DNA of 64,000 nucleotides from Thermoplasmata archaeon (GTDB lineage Archaea > Thermoplasmatota > E2 > JACPAO01 > JAHFTW01). Both the position numbers and the translations under genes were made by a program. Under the pieces are notes generated by a model, which saw only the letters and a program-made list of their open reading frames with translations, was not told the origin of the DNA and made no database searches. Shown here one piece after another: positions 2,181 through 43,193 of the stretch (within the stretch, counting starts at the first letter, position 1; the number at the start of each line of letters is the position of its first letter). The stretch is taken from contig JAHFTW010000002.1 of NCBI GenBank assembly GCA_023269235.1, forward strand, positions 119,294 through 183,293, read 5' to 3'.

Positions 2181-3041
2181 ATGGCGGGACGCGCCCTGGC
2201 CGTGACCGTCGTGCTCGCGGGCCTCGTCCTGGCGGGCTGCGTCTCCGGTCCCGTCCAGGCGCCCCCCAGCAAAGCCACGCTCCTCCCCGCGCCCATCACC
2301 CTCAACATTGGAGCACGGGATTGCCTGAACTTCATCCTGTTCCAGTTCCTCCCCTTCGCTGCCGCCGATGCGTTTCTTCCGCCCGGCTACCACGCCCGGG
2401 ACCCCAAGGATTTCCTGAACTCCCCGGCGGCCACGGGGCAGGCCGCCGCCGTGGTGTTCCTGCTCGACTGCGCAAGCCGCGACGCGGACGGCAAGCCGTG
2501 GGTGAGCGGGTACTCCGGCGTGTACGTCGAGCCGCCCGCCGTCCCCGACACTCCTGATGCGGTGCCCTTGAACTTCTACGAGGTCGAGCACTTCGGGGAG
2601 GAACTGAACGGGACGCTGGCCAGCCTGGGATGGCCGGTCCATGCCTCGAACGTCAGCGTGGCCCGGAACACCGTGAGCCAGGACACCGTCGGGAAATCGG
2701 GCAGCATCACGGACGCCAACGGGTTGCTGTTCCAGTTCTTCGCGACGGCCGCGGCCCCGTATCAGTTGGCCTTGGGCCCGGTCCGGTTGTGGCACGAAAC
2801 CCCCAAGGGAACAGGGTACTTCCAGTACAACGCGACGCTCGATGCCCAGTTCGGACCGGTCGTGTGCATCCTGCCGCAATACGGCACCGTGCTTGGGGCG
2901 CTCATCGGGGAACCGACCCGTCTTCCCAACGGAGGGAACCTGGTGGCTTGCGCCCCAGACCGCGCCCGGCTGGGCGCCACCTTCCCGAACCTGTCGTTCC
3001 TAGGAGAGTTCCGGTTCCTGCCCGGCGTCCACGCGCGGTAG
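2181..3041 (+). CDS. Secreted lipoprotein of unknown function (lipobox LAGC). Paralog of 29436..30275.
   Basis: Signal peptide MAGRALAVTVVLAGLVLAGC. In frame with long ORF 1338..3041, whose upstream part is spurious. Shares collinear motifs with the lipoprotein at 29436. Confidence 0.6.
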   Translation: MAGRALAVTVVLAGLVLAGCVSGPVQAPPSKATLLPAPITLNIGARDCLNFILFQFLPFAAADAFLPPGYHARDPKDFLNSPAATGQAAAVVFLLDCASRDADGKPWVSGYSGVYVEPPAVPDTPDAVPLNFYEVEHFGEELNGTLASLGWPVHASNVSVARNTVSQDTVGKSGSITDANGLLFQFFATAAAPYQLALGPVRLWHETPKGTGYFQYNATLDAQFGPVVCILPQYGTVLGALIGEPTRLPNGGNLVACAPDRARLGATFPNLSFLGEFRFLPGVHAR

Positions 3042-21389: not shown

Positions 21390-21473
21390 GCCAACGTCGC
21401 TCAATCCGGTAGAGCAGCGGTCTTGAAAACCGCCGTCCGCAAGGATTTCCAGGTTCAAATCCTGGCGTTGGCG
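21390..21473 (+). tRNA. tRNA-Ser (anticodon TGA), class II with long variable arm
   Basis: Manual fold: acceptor GCCAACG/CGTTGGC. D stem GCTC/GAGC. Anticodon stem GCGGT/ACCGC with loop CTTGAAA. Long variable arm. T arm CCAGG-TTCAAAT-CCTGG. Discriminator G. Confidence 0.8.
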
Positions 21474-21522
21474 CTTGGGTTGATCGGCAGATCTATGGAT
21501 CTCGGCACCATCGTTTTGGACG

Positions 21523-22047
21523 ATGAGTCGCCGGGCTTCTTACCAGAAGACTCGGTCGAACAATCAAACTGAAGATGAGGCGTTGTTGGTTGTCTTACGC
21601 GCCGACCCCAGAATGCAACTGGTGAATTCCAAGACGCGCAATCGTCTCCTCGACCTTCTGGGACTTCGACCGGGTTTCAGTAGCCGCGTGTTTGACCTCA
21701 TCCGAACCAACTCTGTAGCTCCGGCGCTTGACGAATCTAACATTCACGAACATTTGGACGGCCTTGTTCTTGTTGAGGTCAAAGCCACTCAAGCGCCCAT
21801 CGTCGATTCGTCTCTTCATGGGTTCTTTTTTGGGGCAACCGAGAATGAGTACAAAATTGCGAAGCAACTTGGAGCGGCCTATTGTTTCGCGTTCGTGGTC
21901 CTTCGACCTGCGGGGGGCGGCAAACCTTTCCACGTTCTCTTGGACCTCGATGAAGTTGAGCGCCGCACACAGACCAAGCGAACGCAGTTTCAGGTGAATT
22001 TCAAGTCGGCCCGTCAAGGTGGTGTTCCCCCTGGACCTAAGCCTTGA
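21523..22047 (+). CDS. DUF3883-like PD-(D/E)xK nuclease-fold protein (low-GC islet gene 1)
   Basis: HEHLDGLVLVEVKAT ... FFFGATENEYKIAKQLGAAYCFAFVV resembles the DUF3883 core and C-terminal helix. Codon usage is markedly lower in GC than its surroundings. Confidence 0.5.
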   Translation: MSRRASYQKTRSNNQTEDEALLVVLRADPRMQLVNSKTRNRLLDLLGLRPGFSSRVFDLIRTNSVAPALDESNIHEHLDGLVLVEVKATQAPIVDSSLHGFFFGATENEYKIAKQLGAAYCFAFVVLRPAGGGKPFHVLLDLDEVERRTQTKRTQFQVNFKSARQGGVPPGPKP

Positions 22048-22807
22048 CCCCCGCCCCGGTGAAGGATACCGAAGCGCCAGCCAATGGGCCCGTCGCGTAA
22101 CTGAGAATTGGGCCGCGCGTGAATTGTACTGTTGGGGATGCCAGTCCCCACATCTTTCCGCGCACGCGACCAACACCAGCGTCGAGGATTACCGTTGTCC
22201 GTCTTGCTCTCGACGCGTTCAAGTCAAGGCGAAAAACGGGCCAATCGGGAAGACGGTTGCCAACTCAGGCTACGAAGTAAAACTTCAGGCCATCCGGAAA
22301 AATGTCGCACCAGACTATGCGTTCATGTCGTACAGCCGAACCGATTTGGCCGTCGAATCATTGTTCGTTGTTCCCGGTTCGTTTCTCTCTCAATCTGTAA
22401 TTTCTCCGCGTACGCCTTTGAGCGCGACTGCTCGGCGTGCTGGCTGGGTCGGCTCGAATATTCATCTGGACCGCATTCCGGCGTTTGGGAAAATCGTCGT
22501 GATTGCCGACGGAGCCGCACGTCCCAAGGTGCAGGTCCGCAAAGATTTCTCACAGATTGGATTTGTCGGGTCCTTCCCTCAAGAGCAGCGTGGTTGGCTT
22601 GGGGATGTCCTTTCTTGTTTGGAGAAGCTTGACCTCACGTCCGGAAGTTCATTCCATCTTGGCGACCTCTACGCATTCGAGGATTCCCTGCGTCGCCTGC
22701 ATCCAACGAACAACAACATTCAGCCAAAAATTCGGCAGCAACTCCAAGTGTTGGAACGGCAAGGAATTGTTCGCCGTCTCCGCCCGGGACTGTTCCAAAA
22801 GGTTTGA
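22019..22807 (+). CDS. DpnI-like (Dam-replacing family) methyl-directed type IIM restriction endonuclease: Zn-ribbon + PD-(D/E)xK + C-terminal winged helix
   Basis: YCWGCQSP...YRCPSC zinc ribbon. GYEVKLQAI (ExK). SATARRAGWVGSNIHLDRIP and KIRQQLQVLERQGIVRRL closely recall DpnI segments (TARRAGWIG..., IRQQLQIL...). Low-GC codon usage. Confidence 0.6.
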   Translation: MVFPLDLSLDPRPGEGYRSASQWARRVTENWAARELYCWGCQSPHLSAHATNTSVEDYRCPSCSRRVQVKAKNGPIGKTVANSGYEVKLQAIRKNVAPDYAFMSYSRTDLAVESLFVVPGSFLSQSVISPRTPLSATARRAGWVGSNIHLDRIPAFGKIVVIADGAARPKVQVRKDFSQIGFVGSFPQEQRGWLGDVLSCLEKLDLTSGSSFHLGDLYAFEDSLRRLHPTNNNIQPKIRQQLQVLERQGIVRRLRPGLFQKV

Positions 22808-23035
22808 CTCCACCCCGGCAAAGCGATTTCGTTGCCGTTTCCATCTGAGTCGCATGAGCTACCGGCCGCTGGTGCCGCAGGTTGTTTGTCCGTGTGGGAG
22901 AAAAATTCCTCGTCGAAGTCTTGCGTTGACGGAGCCTGATACGGGGAGTTACCGGGGCGCCATATGGCAATCAGGTTGCTCCTGCGGACGTTCCCTGACG
23001 ATTGAAATTGCGGACGACCCCGAATATCCTTCCGA

Positions 23036-39799: not shown

Positions 39800-40677
39800 G
39801 CCGCCTCCTGGTCGTGGCACTCCTCGCCGGGATGCTCCTCGCCGGGTGCGGGAGCCCCGACAACCCCCAGGCAACCAACGGCAGCCAACCGCCCATCGAG
39901 GCCGGCAAGGGCGCCATCAGCGGCCTCCTCATCGACGACGTGTACCGCCCCATCGCGAAGGCGCTCATCCTCGTCCAGGGCGCCGGCCTCACCGCCACCA
40001 CCGACGACGCCGGCCAGTTCACCCTCCTCAACCTCAACCCCGGCGCCTACATCCTCGTGATGCAGGCCGACGGCTTCGAGGCCGCGCCCAAGAACGTGGA
40101 CGTCAAGGAGGGCCTCTACAATCCCGTGGAGTACCAGGCCCGCCGCATCGTCAACCAGGGCAGCCAGATCCTCACGGAAGAATACTCGGTCTTCATCCCC
40201 TGCACGTTCGCCGTGCCCGTGGCGGGCTGGGTGACGTTCAACTGCGTTCTGGACCTGTCCGGCGACTCCTTCCGCTCCAGCACCGACCCGCTCAACTACA
40301 GCGCGTTCCCGGATCTGACCTATCTCGTGGCCGAGGCCAAGATGAACCGCGTGGGCAGCTACAACTTCGTCGTGCGTCCCCCCGGTTCAGACGTCAACGG
40401 CACCTCCTACGGGGACGCCGTCGTGCAGGACACGGACTACGCAAAGGTCATCCTGAAGAAGAACGAGTTGAACCCGGGCGGGAACATCCCGTGGTACAAC
40501 CACAAGACGCTCGAGGCCGCCCTCTTCGTGAGCGGCCAGATCCCCGTCAGCCCTGACCCGGGTTTCCCCAACGGCGGCCCTGGCCTGGGGGCCAACGTCG
40601 CCGTGCGGGCGACCATCATCGTGTCGGTCTTCCTCGGCCTGCCGACGGTGGACGTCGAGAGTTATCACCTCCTGTAG
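39796..40677 (+). CDS. Lipoprotein with carboxypeptidase-regulatory-like (CarD-like) beta-sandwich domain
   Basis: Lipobox LLAGC. ISGLLIDDVYRPIAKALILVQGAGLTATTDDAGQFTLLNLNPGAYILVMQADGFE (CarboxypepD_reg-like). ATGA overlap with the upstream gene. Confidence 0.6.
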   Translation: MSRLLVVALLAGMLLAGCGSPDNPQATNGSQPPIEAGKGAISGLLIDDVYRPIAKALILVQGAGLTATTDDAGQFTLLNLNPGAYILVMQADGFEAAPKNVDVKEGLYNPVEYQARRIVNQGSQILTEEYSVFIPCTFAVPVAGWVTFNCVLDLSGDSFRSSTDPLNYSAFPDLTYLVAEAKMNRVGSYNFVVRPPGSDVNGTSYGDAVVQDTDYAKVILKKNELNPGGNIPWYNHKTLEAALFVSGQIPVSPDPGFPNGGPGLGANVAVRATIIVSVFLGLPTVDVESYHLL

Positions 40678-40793
40678 GACCGCCCCCGCGGCGGCGCCAG
40701 GTTCAAAGACCCCCCGGAAGTCGGCCGGTCGTCAAGGGGGACCGGGACACATCGGCCCGGCAGGCAATGCCACCCCGGGCACCGGCGCGTTCC

Positions 40794-40866
40794 GGGGAGA
40801 TACCAAAGCGGCTATGGGCGGGACTGCAGATCCCGTTTTACGGGGGTTCGAATCCCTCTCTCCCCT
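40794..40866 (+). tRNA. tRNA-Cys (anticodon GCA)
   Basis: Acceptor GGGGAGA/TCTCCCC. Anticodon stem CGGGA/TCCCG with loop CTGCAGA. T arm GGGGG-TTCGAAT-CCCTC. Discriminator U (Cys identity element). D arm is irregular. Confidence 0.6.
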
Positions 40867-40871
40867 CTGCC

Positions 40872-41681
40872 ATGCTTGGCCAATGCCGCACCCATGGATA
40901 CTACCGCGGGGAGTCGTGCCCCCTCTGCGACCAGCCTGGTCGTCTCCTGATGAAGGACTTCGAGATTGACCGCGTCGGCCGCATGATGGCCGGCATCCTG
41001 CGCCATTTCCCGGAGCGCTTCGGCCTCCAGATGGACGGCCGCGGCTGGGTGGACCTCGACGGCTTCGTCGCCTCCATCCAGCAGAGCCGCGACAACTACC
41101 GCCGCTGGCTGCGCCGCGAGCACATCGAGGCCCTCGTCGAGACCGACGAGAAAGGCCGCTACCAGATCGACGGCGGCATGGTGCGCGCCACCTACGCCCA
41201 CTCCGTCAAGGTCAACCTCGACGACCTGCCCGAGTGCACCCTGGAGACCCTCTACTTCCCTGTCAGCGAAGAGGAGATGGACTTGGTCCTCGAGACCGGC
41301 CTGCGCCCGTCGGACCGCGACAAGATCCACCTCTCCAGCACGCCCGACAAGGCGTACTCGGCCGGGCGCGTCCACATCGCGGACCCCATCCTGCTCGCCA
41401 TCAACGTCAAGAAGGCCTCGGACGCGGGGAACTTCATCTTCCGCGCCGGAAAGACCGTCTACATCACGGACGCCGTCGAGCCCGAGCACCTCAGCAAGTT
41501 CGACGACGCCGAGGCCATGGCCAAACTCCAGGAGGAGTTCGGCACCTCGAAGTCCGACGACGAGAAGAAGGCCCGCGAAGACGCTGCGCGCAAGGAGGAA
41601 GACGCCAAGATGGCGGCGCGCAGCGAGGAAGAGGGCGGCCCCGCGAAGGCCGACTCCGACGACGACGCGGACGACGAATAG
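40872..41681 (+). CDS. kptA: RNA 2'-phosphotransferase KptA/Tpt1 with possible N-terminal Zn-ribbon extension and acidic/Lys-rich C-terminal tail
   Basis: KDFEIDRVGRMMAGILRHFPERFGLQMDGRGWVDL matches the Tpt1 core. CRTHGYYRGESCPLCDQ lies upstream, in frame. Alternative start MKDFEID (40950). Confidence 0.75.
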   Translation: MLGQCRTHGYYRGESCPLCDQPGRLLMKDFEIDRVGRMMAGILRHFPERFGLQMDGRGWVDLDGFVASIQQSRDNYRRWLRREHIEALVETDEKGRYQIDGGMVRATYAHSVKVNLDDLPECTLETLYFPVSEEEMDLVLETGLRPSDRDKIHLSSTPDKAYSAGRVHIADPILLAINVKKASDAGNFIFRAGKTVYITDAVEPEHLSKFDDAEAMAKLQEEFGTSKSDDEKKAREDAARKEEDAKMAARSEEEGGPAKADSDDDADDE

Positions 41682-41760
41682 AATCCCCTTCTGGCGAACC
41701 GCCGGCGCGACCCTAGCCCTTATCTAGAAGTCGTTTGTCGCGCGGTTCGCCGCAAGGCAT

Positions 41761-41836
41761 GGGCGATTAGCCGAGACAGGTAAATGGCAGCGGACTCTTA
41801 ATCCGCTATCCACCGGTTCGAATCCGGTATCGCCCG
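41761..41836 (+). tRNA. tRNA-Lys (anticodon CTT)
   Basis: Acceptor GGGCGAT/ATCGCCC. D stem GCCG/TGGC. Anticodon stem GCGGA/TCCGC with loop CTCTTAA. T arm ACCGG-TTCGAAT-CCGGT. Discriminator G. Confidence 0.8.
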
Positions 41837-41991
41837 CTCGCACAAGTGCGAGCTGCCGAGCGCCACGAGCGCTTGTGCGCTCGTGGCTATCGCCCGCTCA
41901 TTCGCTCACGCACGAAGCGGCCGAGCGCCTGGAGCCGCCGTCGCGCCGCTCCTCTGCTCCCGGCTATCGCCCGCCAGGGGCCCGCCCCTGG
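41828..41991 (+). repeat. Three tandem copies of the tRNA-Lys 3' acceptor segment (TATCGCCCGC), each followed by a GC-rich hairpin
   Basis: Copies at 41828, 41888 and 41965. Hairpins ctcgcacaagtgcgag, gccacgagcgcttgtgcgctcgtggc and ccaggggcccgcccctgg. Confidence 0.6.
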
Positions 41992-43193
41992 ACCCCATTG
42001 TATTTGTGGGCGAACAGGCACGCGGCGTCGTGGCCTTCACGAAGACCGAGCGCGGCCTCATCGCGGGCGCGTCGTTCCTGGTGTTCACCCGCGTCTTCGC
42101 GTTCAGCCTCACCACGCTGGGGTTCACGGAGTACGCGCGCGGCCTCGTCCCCGCCGGCACTGATGCGGCCACGGCGAGCCTGTGGGCCGGCGTCGCGTTG
42201 GGCGCCTACGGAGTCACGATGGCCCTCGCCCAGCTCGCCGCGGGCTGGCTCTCCGACCGCGTCGGCCGCCGCACCGTCCTCCTGGGCGGTTCCCTGCTGT
42301 TCGTGCTGGGGGGCGTCCTCTGTGCGACCGCCACTACGGTTCCCTTCCTCGTCCTCGGCCGCCTCGTCGCGGGTCTCGGCGGGGTGTCGAGCGTCGCGAT
42401 GGCCGCCGTCGGCGAGACCGTCCCCGACGAGCGCCGCACGCGCGCCATGGCGATGGTGGGTGTCCCCGCCGGCCTCGGCGTCTTCCTCGGCTTCATCGTC
42501 GGCCCCCCCGTCGCGGCCGCGTTCGGGTTCACGACCCTGTTCTGGTGCACGGCGGCCCTCGGCCTGCTGGCGGCCCTCCCGTCGATGCGCGCGATGCCCG
42601 CCCCACTGCCCGGCCTCGCCACGCCGAACCGCAGCTTGAGCGCCCCGGTTCTCGCCCTCGGGCTGGCGGGCTTCAGCATCAACTTCGCCATGAACACCGT
42701 CATGTTCGACTTCCAGAGCGGCGTCCTCACACGCATCGGGGAGACCGCCCTGGCGCTCATCCTGGTCGCGGCCCTCGTCATCATGGGTGGCATCAGCCGC
42801 CGCATGGACAAAGGCGGCCTGGCCCACGTCGCCATCGCCTCCGCACTGGCCCTGCTCGCCCTCGCGGCGCCGACGTTCCGGCTCGCGGGCACCTGGTGGA
42901 TCGTGGTGGCGGCCGGCGTGGCCTTCTTCGCCGCCCACGCCACCCTCTCCGCCGTCCTGCCGAGCCAGGTGAGCCGCCTCGCCGGCCGTTCCGGAGGCCT
43001 CGGCCACGGCATCCAGCTCGTGATGGCCTACTTGGGCTCCGCCGTGGGTGGCCTCGTCGCCGGCCGCTTCGCGGGCGGCCTCGCCCCCGCCTTCGAGGGG
43101 CTCGCGGTCCTCGCCGGCCTCGCCGCCGTCCTGGCCCTCCGGACCCTGGCCCGCCGGGAACCGTCCCCCGCGAGCGCGGTTCCCCAACCTTGA
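41883..43193 (+). CDS. MFS transporter. True start probably about 42006 (GTG).
   Basis: Twelve TM helices. WLSDRVGRRTVLLGGS (MFS motif A-like). The ATG at 41883 lies in the repeat array. Confidence 0.75.
   Translation: MAIARSFAHARSGRAPGAAVAPLLCSRLSPARGPPLDPIVFVGEQARGVVAFTKTERGLIAGASFLVFTRVFAFSLTTLGFTEYARGLVPAGTDAATASLWAGVALGAYGVTMALAQLAAGWLSDRVGRRTVLLGGSLLFVLGGVLCATATTVPFLVLGRLVAGLGGVSSVAMAAVGETVPDERRTRAMAMVGVPAGLGVFLGFIVGPPVAAAFGFTTLFWCTAALGLLAALPSMRAMPAPLPGLATPNRSLSAPVLALGLAGFSINFAMNTVMFDFQSGVLTRIGETALALILVAALVIMGGISRRMDKGGLAHVAIASALALLALAAPTFRLAGTWWIVVAAGVAFFAAHATLSAVLPSQVSRLAGRSGGLGHGIQLVMAYLGSAVGGLVAGRFAGGLAPAFEGLAVLAGLAAVLALRTLARREPSPASAVPQP

Follow-up and report, generated by a model that had tools for sequence, protein, structure and literature searches.

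A zinc-ribbon Tpt1/KptA encoded between tRNA-Cys and tRNA-Lys in a Thermoplasmata archaeon

The kptA locus and its product

A stretch of 64,000 nucleotides (nt) from a Thermoplasmata archaeon (assembly GCA_023269235.1, contig JAHFTW010000002.1, forward-strand positions 119,294 to 183,293), hereafter the window and numbered from its first letter, carries a gene for the RNA 2'-phosphotransferase Tpt1/KptA (kptA, also called tpt1) between two transfer RNA (tRNA) genes, all three on the plus strand. The tRNA-Cys gene (anticodon GCA; 40794-40866) was identified by Rfam model RF00005 (53.7 bits) and by ARAGORN, which places its end at 40867; the discriminator is U at 40866, and CCA is not encoded. 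After a 5-nt spacer, CTGCC (40867-40871), follows kptA (40872-41681), which encodes 269 amino acids, ends with a TAG stop codon at 41679-41681 and was assigned from its translation, PF01885, NF002015, Tpt1 entries of the PDB and AlphaFold/Foldseek. The tRNA-Lys gene (CUU; 41761-41836; ARAGORN, Rfam 61.8 bits) begins after a gap of 79 nt. A search of 40000-42600 against Rfam returned these two tRNAs and nothing else. A preliminary description of this DNA had proposed the same arrangement, with the ATG 6 nt past the tRNA-Cys discriminator and the gene end 79 nt before tRNA-Lys, and both distances proved exact, the A of the ATG (40872) being the sixth base after U40866. A longer open reading frame from ATG 40767, reading through tRNA-Cys, was discarded as mechanical, because that part is non-coding. 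The source lineage has a guanine-plus-cytosine (GC) content of 67% and is known from sand, sediment and groundwater genome bins.

The comparisons drew on species-level loci from 80 genomes, the best of 418 that had a relative, and on a close set of 28 loci of the window's clade with 65-92% protein identity. Column conservation was taken from a 245-sequence alignment, codon comparison from 27 close loci and ribbon diversity from 39 diverse homologs.

By sequence and by structural model, the gene is a genuine full-length archaeal Tpt1/KptA, of the family of RNA 2'-phosphotransferases dependent on nicotinamide adenine dinucleotide (NAD+). The Pfam family PF01885 (Tpt1/KptA) was matched over residues 34-200 with 88.3 bits against a cutoff of 26 (E-value 8e-25), and solved archaeal Tpt1 chains in the PDB were matched at E ~1e-27. 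The AlphaFold model, built from 58 homologs, has a mean predicted local distance difference test score (pLDDT) of 93.2 and a predicted template modelling (TM) score of 0.80, and the two-lobe fold, with an RNA lobe and an NAD+ lobe, is present in it. Foldseek aligned the model with 8tfi, 9ldg and 8tg3 at E 1e-17, with target-normalised TM scores of 0.81-0.90 and root-mean-square deviations of ~2 A. The catalytic core comprises residues 27-208 (40950-41495). In the enzyme of Aeropyrum pernix (ApeTpt1), the catalytic tetrad is R14-H15-R63-R116 (PMC10622864). When column conservation was mapped onto ApeTpt1, R44, H45, R105 and R149 of the window protein were found to align with these residues, so that the tetrad is intact; of the 245 aligned sequences, 241 share the R of R44, 242 the H of H45, 241 the R of R105 and 229 the R of R149.

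The solved Tpt1 proteins of A. pernix, Pyrococcus horikoshii and Thermococcus kodakarensis share the two-lobe fold and the tetrad Arg-His-Arg-Arg with the window protein at 33-36% identity, the fold with TM scores of 0.86-0.90. They differ from it in being only 177-186 amino acids long, with neither a zinc ribbon nor an acidic tail, and in the auxiliary arginine of their GRRHG motif, which is Val in the window protein (GRVH). This arginine contacts the phosphates of adenosine diphosphate (ADP) and the 2'-PO4, but it is no member of the essential tetrad, and yeast can do without the counterpart of Ape R134 (PMC10622864). Loss of the fourth tetrad Arg, which AGRVH in place of GRRHG could suggest, was ruled out: in ApeTpt1 numbering the tetrad Arg R116 corresponds to R149, and therefore only the auxiliary R134 position is altered.

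The N-terminal zinc ribbon and the C-terminal tail

Residues 1-26 (40872-40949) precede the core and carry the putative zinc ligands C5, H8, C16 and C19. The CxH..CxxC knuckle that had been noted on an in-frame N-terminal extension is borne out, with the more precise form C5-R-T-H8 ... C16-P-L-C19, that is, C-x2-H-x7-C-x2-C. This extension was aligned from query residue 1 in all 80 species-level loci. Among the closest 120 homologs, short or truncated calls aside, nearly all begin ML[AG][QE]C..HG, the fuller shared start of close homologs being ML[AG][QE]C..HGY[YF]R[GA]..CP.C...G[RK]F.M. About 24 of the 120 are gene calls that begin at or after an internal Met, or fragments, and two homolog gene calls extend through the in-frame translation of the upstream tRNA. 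In the 27 close loci of the codon comparison, the first codon is always ATG and the four ligands are unchanged. The invariant residues of the extension use two to five codons (four for L2, four for G9, five for R12), which indicates a translated and selected segment. AlphaFold predicts a three-stranded ribbon here (strands 2-5, 9-12 and 24-27) with a pLDDT of 96.

Could translation begin at Met27 (MKDF...) instead, leaving 40872-40949 as an untranslated leader? Some automatic gene calls in relatives do begin there (e.g. P0045, P0064 and P0071), and Met27 is invariant within the clade. Distant homologs with the zinc ribbon, however, have Leu, Ile or Val at position 27, which is therefore better regarded as a core residue than as a start signal. 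Codons 1-26 are conserved in coding fashion, with synonymous changes at invariant residues; they are also matched in every one of the 80 loci, have a confident predicted fold and are covered by NF002015. A start at Met27 was rejected on this codon-level conservation, fold confidence and profile coverage, and has next to no probability. Homologs were not found to start universally at MKDF, and their alignment revealed a zinc knuckle conserved across Thermoplasmatota and beyond. On the combined evidence of codons and structural model, the N-terminal extension is real coding sequence, translated from ATG 40872.

How widespread is this ribbon? Across the 39 diverse homologs, C5 never varies, and conservation of C16 and C19 is 90% or higher. 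The Archaeoglobaceae have the variant CPVHGFYRGEFCGCG; their cluster, which starts MEDIRFCPVHGFYRGEFCGCG, has among its members a sequence named for Archaeoglobus fulgidus. Methanopyrus has CPRCGRYTEEDVCERCG. Other forms among the homolog sequences are C.DHGYF....CP.CG and C.VCG.FTE...HCG, the first of which we take to be that of haloarchaeal KptA; ribbon variants are probably also present in halophile-like lineages. The NCBIfam model NF002015 (PRK00819.1-5) was the best of four KptA models for the window protein, aligning over residues 2-210 with 225.6 bits, below its curated cutoff of 279, and was matched by all 39 ribbon-bearing homologs. Since its alignment starts at residue 2, the curated model already contains the ribbon. 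Tpt1 of the Archaeoglobus type has C-x-C where the window protein has C-x2-C, and neither it nor the other proteins of NF002015 show a fusion with tRNA-Cys. Activity in vitro has been shown for the Tpt1 of A. fulgidus (PMC6182162), and this assayed protein probably carries the ribbon. Judged from these comparisons, the ribbon is old and widespread among the KptA proteins of euryarchaea.

When a ribbon profile was built from all lineages, it matched the archaeal Nop10 zinc ribbon at E 2e-6 and the knuckle of aIF2-gamma at E near 1e-3. Like the Nop10 ribbon, that of KptA is short and follows the pattern I-R-x-C-x2-[CH]-G-x-[FY]-x3-C-P-x-C-G, with four ligands in two knuckles. Unlike in Nop10, the second ligand is His, and the ribbon is fused to Tpt1, whereas Nop10 stands alone as a subunit and docks on Cbf5. 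An N-terminal zinc ribbon is absent from all solved Tpt1 structures, and a literature search found no description of one on Tpt1/KptA; the zinc-ribbon KptA subfamily is thus captured by databases and unexamined in the literature found. Tpt1/KptA has been studied intensively, yet the archaeal enzymes that were solved or kinetically dissected are all of the kind lacking this ribbon, which is common in euryarchaeal versions. The ribbon would pack against the RNA-binding lobe, and its most likely role would be to stabilise or extend the RNA-binding surface. A conserved, ancient ribbon with a family-level likeness to Nop10 points to a candidate module for RNA recognition or stability, and such a module could help to explain the targets of the enzyme in organisms without 2'-phosphate-forming tRNA ligases.

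The C-terminal tail (residues 209-269; 41496-41678), which had been noted as unusual, acidic and Lys-rich, has 25 Asp or Glu and 11 Lys or Arg among the 69 residues counted after the core. After a segment shared within the clade, KF[ED]D.E.M.KL..EFG, comes an acidic, low-complexity tract, variable in length, that ends in ..SEE or ..EEE in most homologs and in ..DDE in the window protein. In distant relatives the tail is absent or short, with ~20 residues past the core. AlphaFold places helices at 213-223 and 226-254, and helical prediction is common for charged stretches. That the tail might imitate nucleic acid and so be autoinhibitory is no more than a guess.

The tRNA-Cys junction and the expression of kptA

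The end of tRNA-Cys lies 2-5 nt before the kptA ATG in 27 of the 28 close loci. The sequence of this spacer differs by locus (CTGCC, CTC, TCC, TT and others) and its length stays minimal; the spacers are pyrimidine-rich, with no Shine-Dalgarno-like run. The tRNA-Cys-kptA arrangement is specific to the clade and conserved across 27 species-level genomes.

Upstream of tRNA-Cys, a promoter-like motif was found at 40702-40723 on the plus strand, with a TATA-like TTCAAAGA (40702-40709), 10 nt, and GTCG (40720-40723). In a shuffle-controlled test on tRNA upstream regions, the general form of this motif (an AT-rich 8-mer such as TTCAAAGA or CTTAAGAA, then 9-12 nt and GTCG) was present 5' of tRNA-Cys in 21 of the 28 close loci, against 0.96 expected. 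A loose regular expression run over the whole window returned mostly matches in coding sequence and was uninformative. Between the 5' end of tRNA-Cys and the kptA ATG, the motif occurs in none of the 28 loci. Because the motif stands upstream of tRNA-Cys and is absent from the stretch between tRNA and ATG, kptA would depend on the tRNA-Cys promoter; in the window, the 5-nt spacer is too short for a separate promoter of the kind that could have spoken against the proposed reading, and no sign of one was seen.

The arrangement suggests that kptA is most likely co-transcribed with tRNA-Cys and freed as a near-leaderless messenger RNA (mRNA) by 3' processing of the tRNA. In this scheme kptA would have no promoter of its own and would be transcribed from the one at 40702-40723, giving a precursor composed of leader, tRNA-Cys and kptA. 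Cleavage by ribonuclease (RNase) Z after the tRNA-Cys discriminator would then yield a kptA mRNA with a 5' end of 5 nt, which, with no Shine-Dalgarno-like sequence and an obligatory AUG, would be translated as a leaderless message. Tight embedding in the tRNA cluster had been taken to suggest co-transcription, and on the tRNA-Cys side the comparison of loci, with the short spacer and the missing motif, supports that view well.

The presumed 5' leader of the tRNA-Cys precursor (40724-40793, plus strand) is conserved in the window and in L006, L007, L009 and L011; over the 28 close loci, leader length ranges from about 10 to 70 nt. A hairpin in the leader of the window and these four relatives varies in concert on its two sides. 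The leader had no Rfam match and, folded alone, was not better than shuffles (z -0.75).

Processing of tRNAs that punctuate mitochondrial transcripts defines the ends of the mRNAs there. An archaeal precedent for a tRNA-mRNA co-transcript is found in T. kodakarensis, in which a tRNA-Lys lies within the 5' untranslated region of TK0306 (PMC4247193). As in both of these systems, a tRNA stands upstream of a coding sequence on one, here predicted, transcript. Unlike in the case of TK0306, the 3' end of the tRNA abuts the start codon of kptA, an arrangement shared by 27 species-level genomes and, as to its product, predicted from genomes. The tRNA-Cys/ATG junction is thus a natural case in which to ask whether archaeal tRNA 3' processing can make translatable leaderless mRNAs.

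The short and conserved distance from tRNA to ATG would equally suit a fixed spacing between promoter and start. If a kptA promoter were hidden inside the tRNA-Cys gene, a primary leaderless mRNA would begin at the ATG or immediately ahead of it, independently of tRNA-Cys transcription, and the variable loop of the window tRNA does contain TTTTA ~34 nt before the ATG. This TTTTA is not conserved, however, being replaced in relatives by TTTAC, TCAC, ATAC or TGAC. The T-loop sequence TTCGAAT, at 16-25 nt from the ATG, stands nearer to it than an archaeal TATA box would. With the promoter motif of the clade also missing from all 28 tRNA-to-ATG stretches, an internal promoter was rejected as quite unlikely.

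What precedes kptA where the fusion is absent? In such lineages, a TATA box is found about 28-36 nt before the ATG, hence with a very short leader. L048 (57% identity, no fusion) has a TATA-like box 28 nt before the kptA ATG, and a low-GC clade of Thermoplasmata has a near-invariant box, ACAAAAAyTTATAC, ~30 nt before it. Fused and unfused loci therefore both give very short leaders, which suggests that the form of the 5' end of kptA mRNA persists whichever way it is produced.

Two further observations concern these unfused loci. In L048 (66% GC; 2765-3001), tRNA-Cys is encoded 164 nt upstream of kptA in the opposite orientation, and this may be a pre-fusion intermediate. In the low-GC Thermoplasmata L033-L085, the ~70 nt upstream of kptA, a divergent rpiA-kptA intergenic region, is almost invariant over genomes of 30-55% GC. 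It reads GTAAT ... ACAAAAAyTTATAC ... ATTAC and resembles a strong promoter between the arms of an inverted repeat, and the repeat could be the site of a regulator.

tRNA-Lys, gene order and likely substrates

On the other side of kptA, the case for co-transcription does not hold. A promoter-like motif at 41719-41740 (plus strand), inside the 79-nt gap, consists of CTTATCTA (41719-41726), 10 nt, and GTCG (41737-41740). All 11 of the related loci have this motif 5' of tRNA-Lys, where 0.6 would be expected, including those in which another gene separates kptA from tRNA-Lys. tRNA-Lys would therefore appear to be transcribed on its own, from its own promoter, and, with no oligo-T terminator separating the two genes, read-through from kptA would be possible.

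In about half of 55 more distant loci, tRNA-Lys lies 30-134 nt after kptA, and in several close loci it lies within ~2.6 kb of it. Since the kptA-tRNA-Lys pair also occurs in the more distant loci, it predates the tRNA-Cys fusion. Most close relatives, L001, L002 and L006 among them, have kptA and tRNA-Lys separated by an extra opposite-strand gene of ~540 amino acids, for which only a faint BNR-repeat Pfam match was obtained (L001, L002); the window lacks it and has the direct adjacency of distant clades.

These data bear on whether the tRNA neighbourhood has any meaning for KptA. It could be frozen synteny, with packing so tight, promoters overlapping gene ends, that rearrangement cannot separate the genes. 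In the low-GC clade, the kptA stop (TAATA...) indeed stands at the expected site of the tRNA-Lys TATA box, 30-57 nt before the tRNA, and clustering of open reading frames in the flanks showed the upstream rpiA block to be conserved in 47 loci, which takes force from any argument that the kptA-tRNA-Lys pair is under special selection in that clade; tight packing alone could preserve the gene order. Elsewhere, kptA follows a protein gene (L030, L031 and L057), and in L086 and L087 (Archaeoglobaceae and Methanopyrus) it stands among protein genes with no tRNA nearby. The flanking tRNAs, moreover, have no conserved U47. Nevertheless, the kptA-tRNA-Lys pair outlasts changes on the other side, at ~50% protein identity and over 30-67% GC. 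Frozen synteny is also compatible with co-transcription and does not replace it, for a kptA with a 2-5 nt spacer still needs expression. It is a plausible account of the gene order, with a probability short of even. The loci of Archaeoglobaceae and Methanopyrus rule out tRNA linkage as a general feature of KptA. In the former, kptA lies ~2 kb from genes for NAD kinase and an inositol-phosphatase-family protein, and in the latter endonuclease V follows kptA directly.

The embedding among tRNAs had also been read as a sign of a tRNA-related function. Nothing marks the flanking tRNAs as substrates, and other lineages have no tRNA nearby; judged from gene order and sequence, the tRNA link is read as expression architecture, not as a pointer to substrates. 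The statement that the role of archaeal Tpt1 is unresolved is partly outdated. T. kodakarensis KptA removes the tRNA 2'-phospho-U47 installed by the kinase ArkI, the only natural substrate of an archaeal KptA shown so far (Ohira et al., PMC9095486), and ArkI is found mainly in thermophiles. The window protein belongs to the same enzyme family as the eraser of this writer-eraser pair, which was shown for a hyperthermophile KptA without a zinc ribbon. Its job would be the removal of 2'-phosphates from RNA, for example of tRNA 2'-phospho-U47 if the organism has ArkI.

Alternatively, the protein may have drifted to other Tpt1 chemistry, namely ADP-ribose capping of 5'-phosphates or dephosphorylation of NADP(H), the phosphorylated form of the cofactor, with specificity set by the ribbon and the tail. 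Archaeal Tpt1 proteins, including that of Archaeoglobus, cap 5'-phosphate ends in vitro (PMC6182162), and Tpt1 can transfer the 2'-phosphate of NADP(H) (PMC10622864). The auxiliary Arg is Val in the clade, and in its column Val is found in 123 and Arg in 90 of the 245 aligned sequences. The mainly thermophilic occurrence of ArkI, set beside a 67%-GC lineage from sand, sediment and groundwater, points the same way. The essential tetrad is intact, however, the residue in question is the one dispensable in yeast, and R166 is adjacent to it. Drifted chemistry is thus considered unlikely.

The whole explanation, in which a Tpt1 of ribbon, core and tail is made from a leaderless mRNA driven by the tRNA-Cys promoter, tRNA-Lys is transcribed separately and 2'-phosphate removal is the likely job, is given a probability of about 0.65. 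Several points weigh against it. The spacer between tRNA-Cys and ATG is 28 nt in L011, and a strict motif match is absent 5' of tRNA-Cys in 7 of the 28 close loci. The transcription start, the RNase Z cleavage and the leaderless translation are all deduced from sequence, and the promoters are assigned by their motif and by analogy of spacing. An RNase Z product would bear a 5'-monophosphate, which would put the stability and translation of the kptA mRNA in question. A ribbon profile from Thermoplasmatota only matches Nop10 at E 0.07, and the likeness to Nop10 is therefore taken as a family-level resemblance, not as proven homology. The auxiliary Arg (Ape R134, Pho R133) is V167 in the window protein, beside R166. 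Finally, the variable loop of tRNA-Lys, UAUCC, places C at position 47, and that of tRNA-Cys is UUUUAC in the window and 4-5 nt long in relatives, so that a U47 is not clear; the flanking tRNAs are thus not supported as U47 substrates.

A more speculative idea turns the 5'-monophosphate to use. Expression of kptA could be hard-wired to the synthesis and 3' processing of tRNA-Cys, and KptA could cap with ADP-ribose, and thereby stabilise, its own 5'-monophosphate mRNA or other products of RNase Z or RNase P. This would tie tRNA processing and an RNA-end-modifying enzyme into a self-referential loop, and it is very improbable.

Two minor observations concern tRNA genes as possible sites of integration. 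Three copies of the final 10-12 nt of tRNA-Lys (TATCGCCCGC[TC]C) are present, at 41828, 41888 and 41964, with strong hairpins between them (41828-41975), and partial duplicates of the tRNA-Lys 3' end are also found downstream in L006, L016 and L023; these repeats look like scars of integration at the tRNA. Elsewhere in the window, the stretch at 21480-23000, right after a tRNA-Ser(TGA) gene (21390-21474), has a GC fraction of 0.56-0.60 against a background of ~0.69, and may be a small integrated islet.

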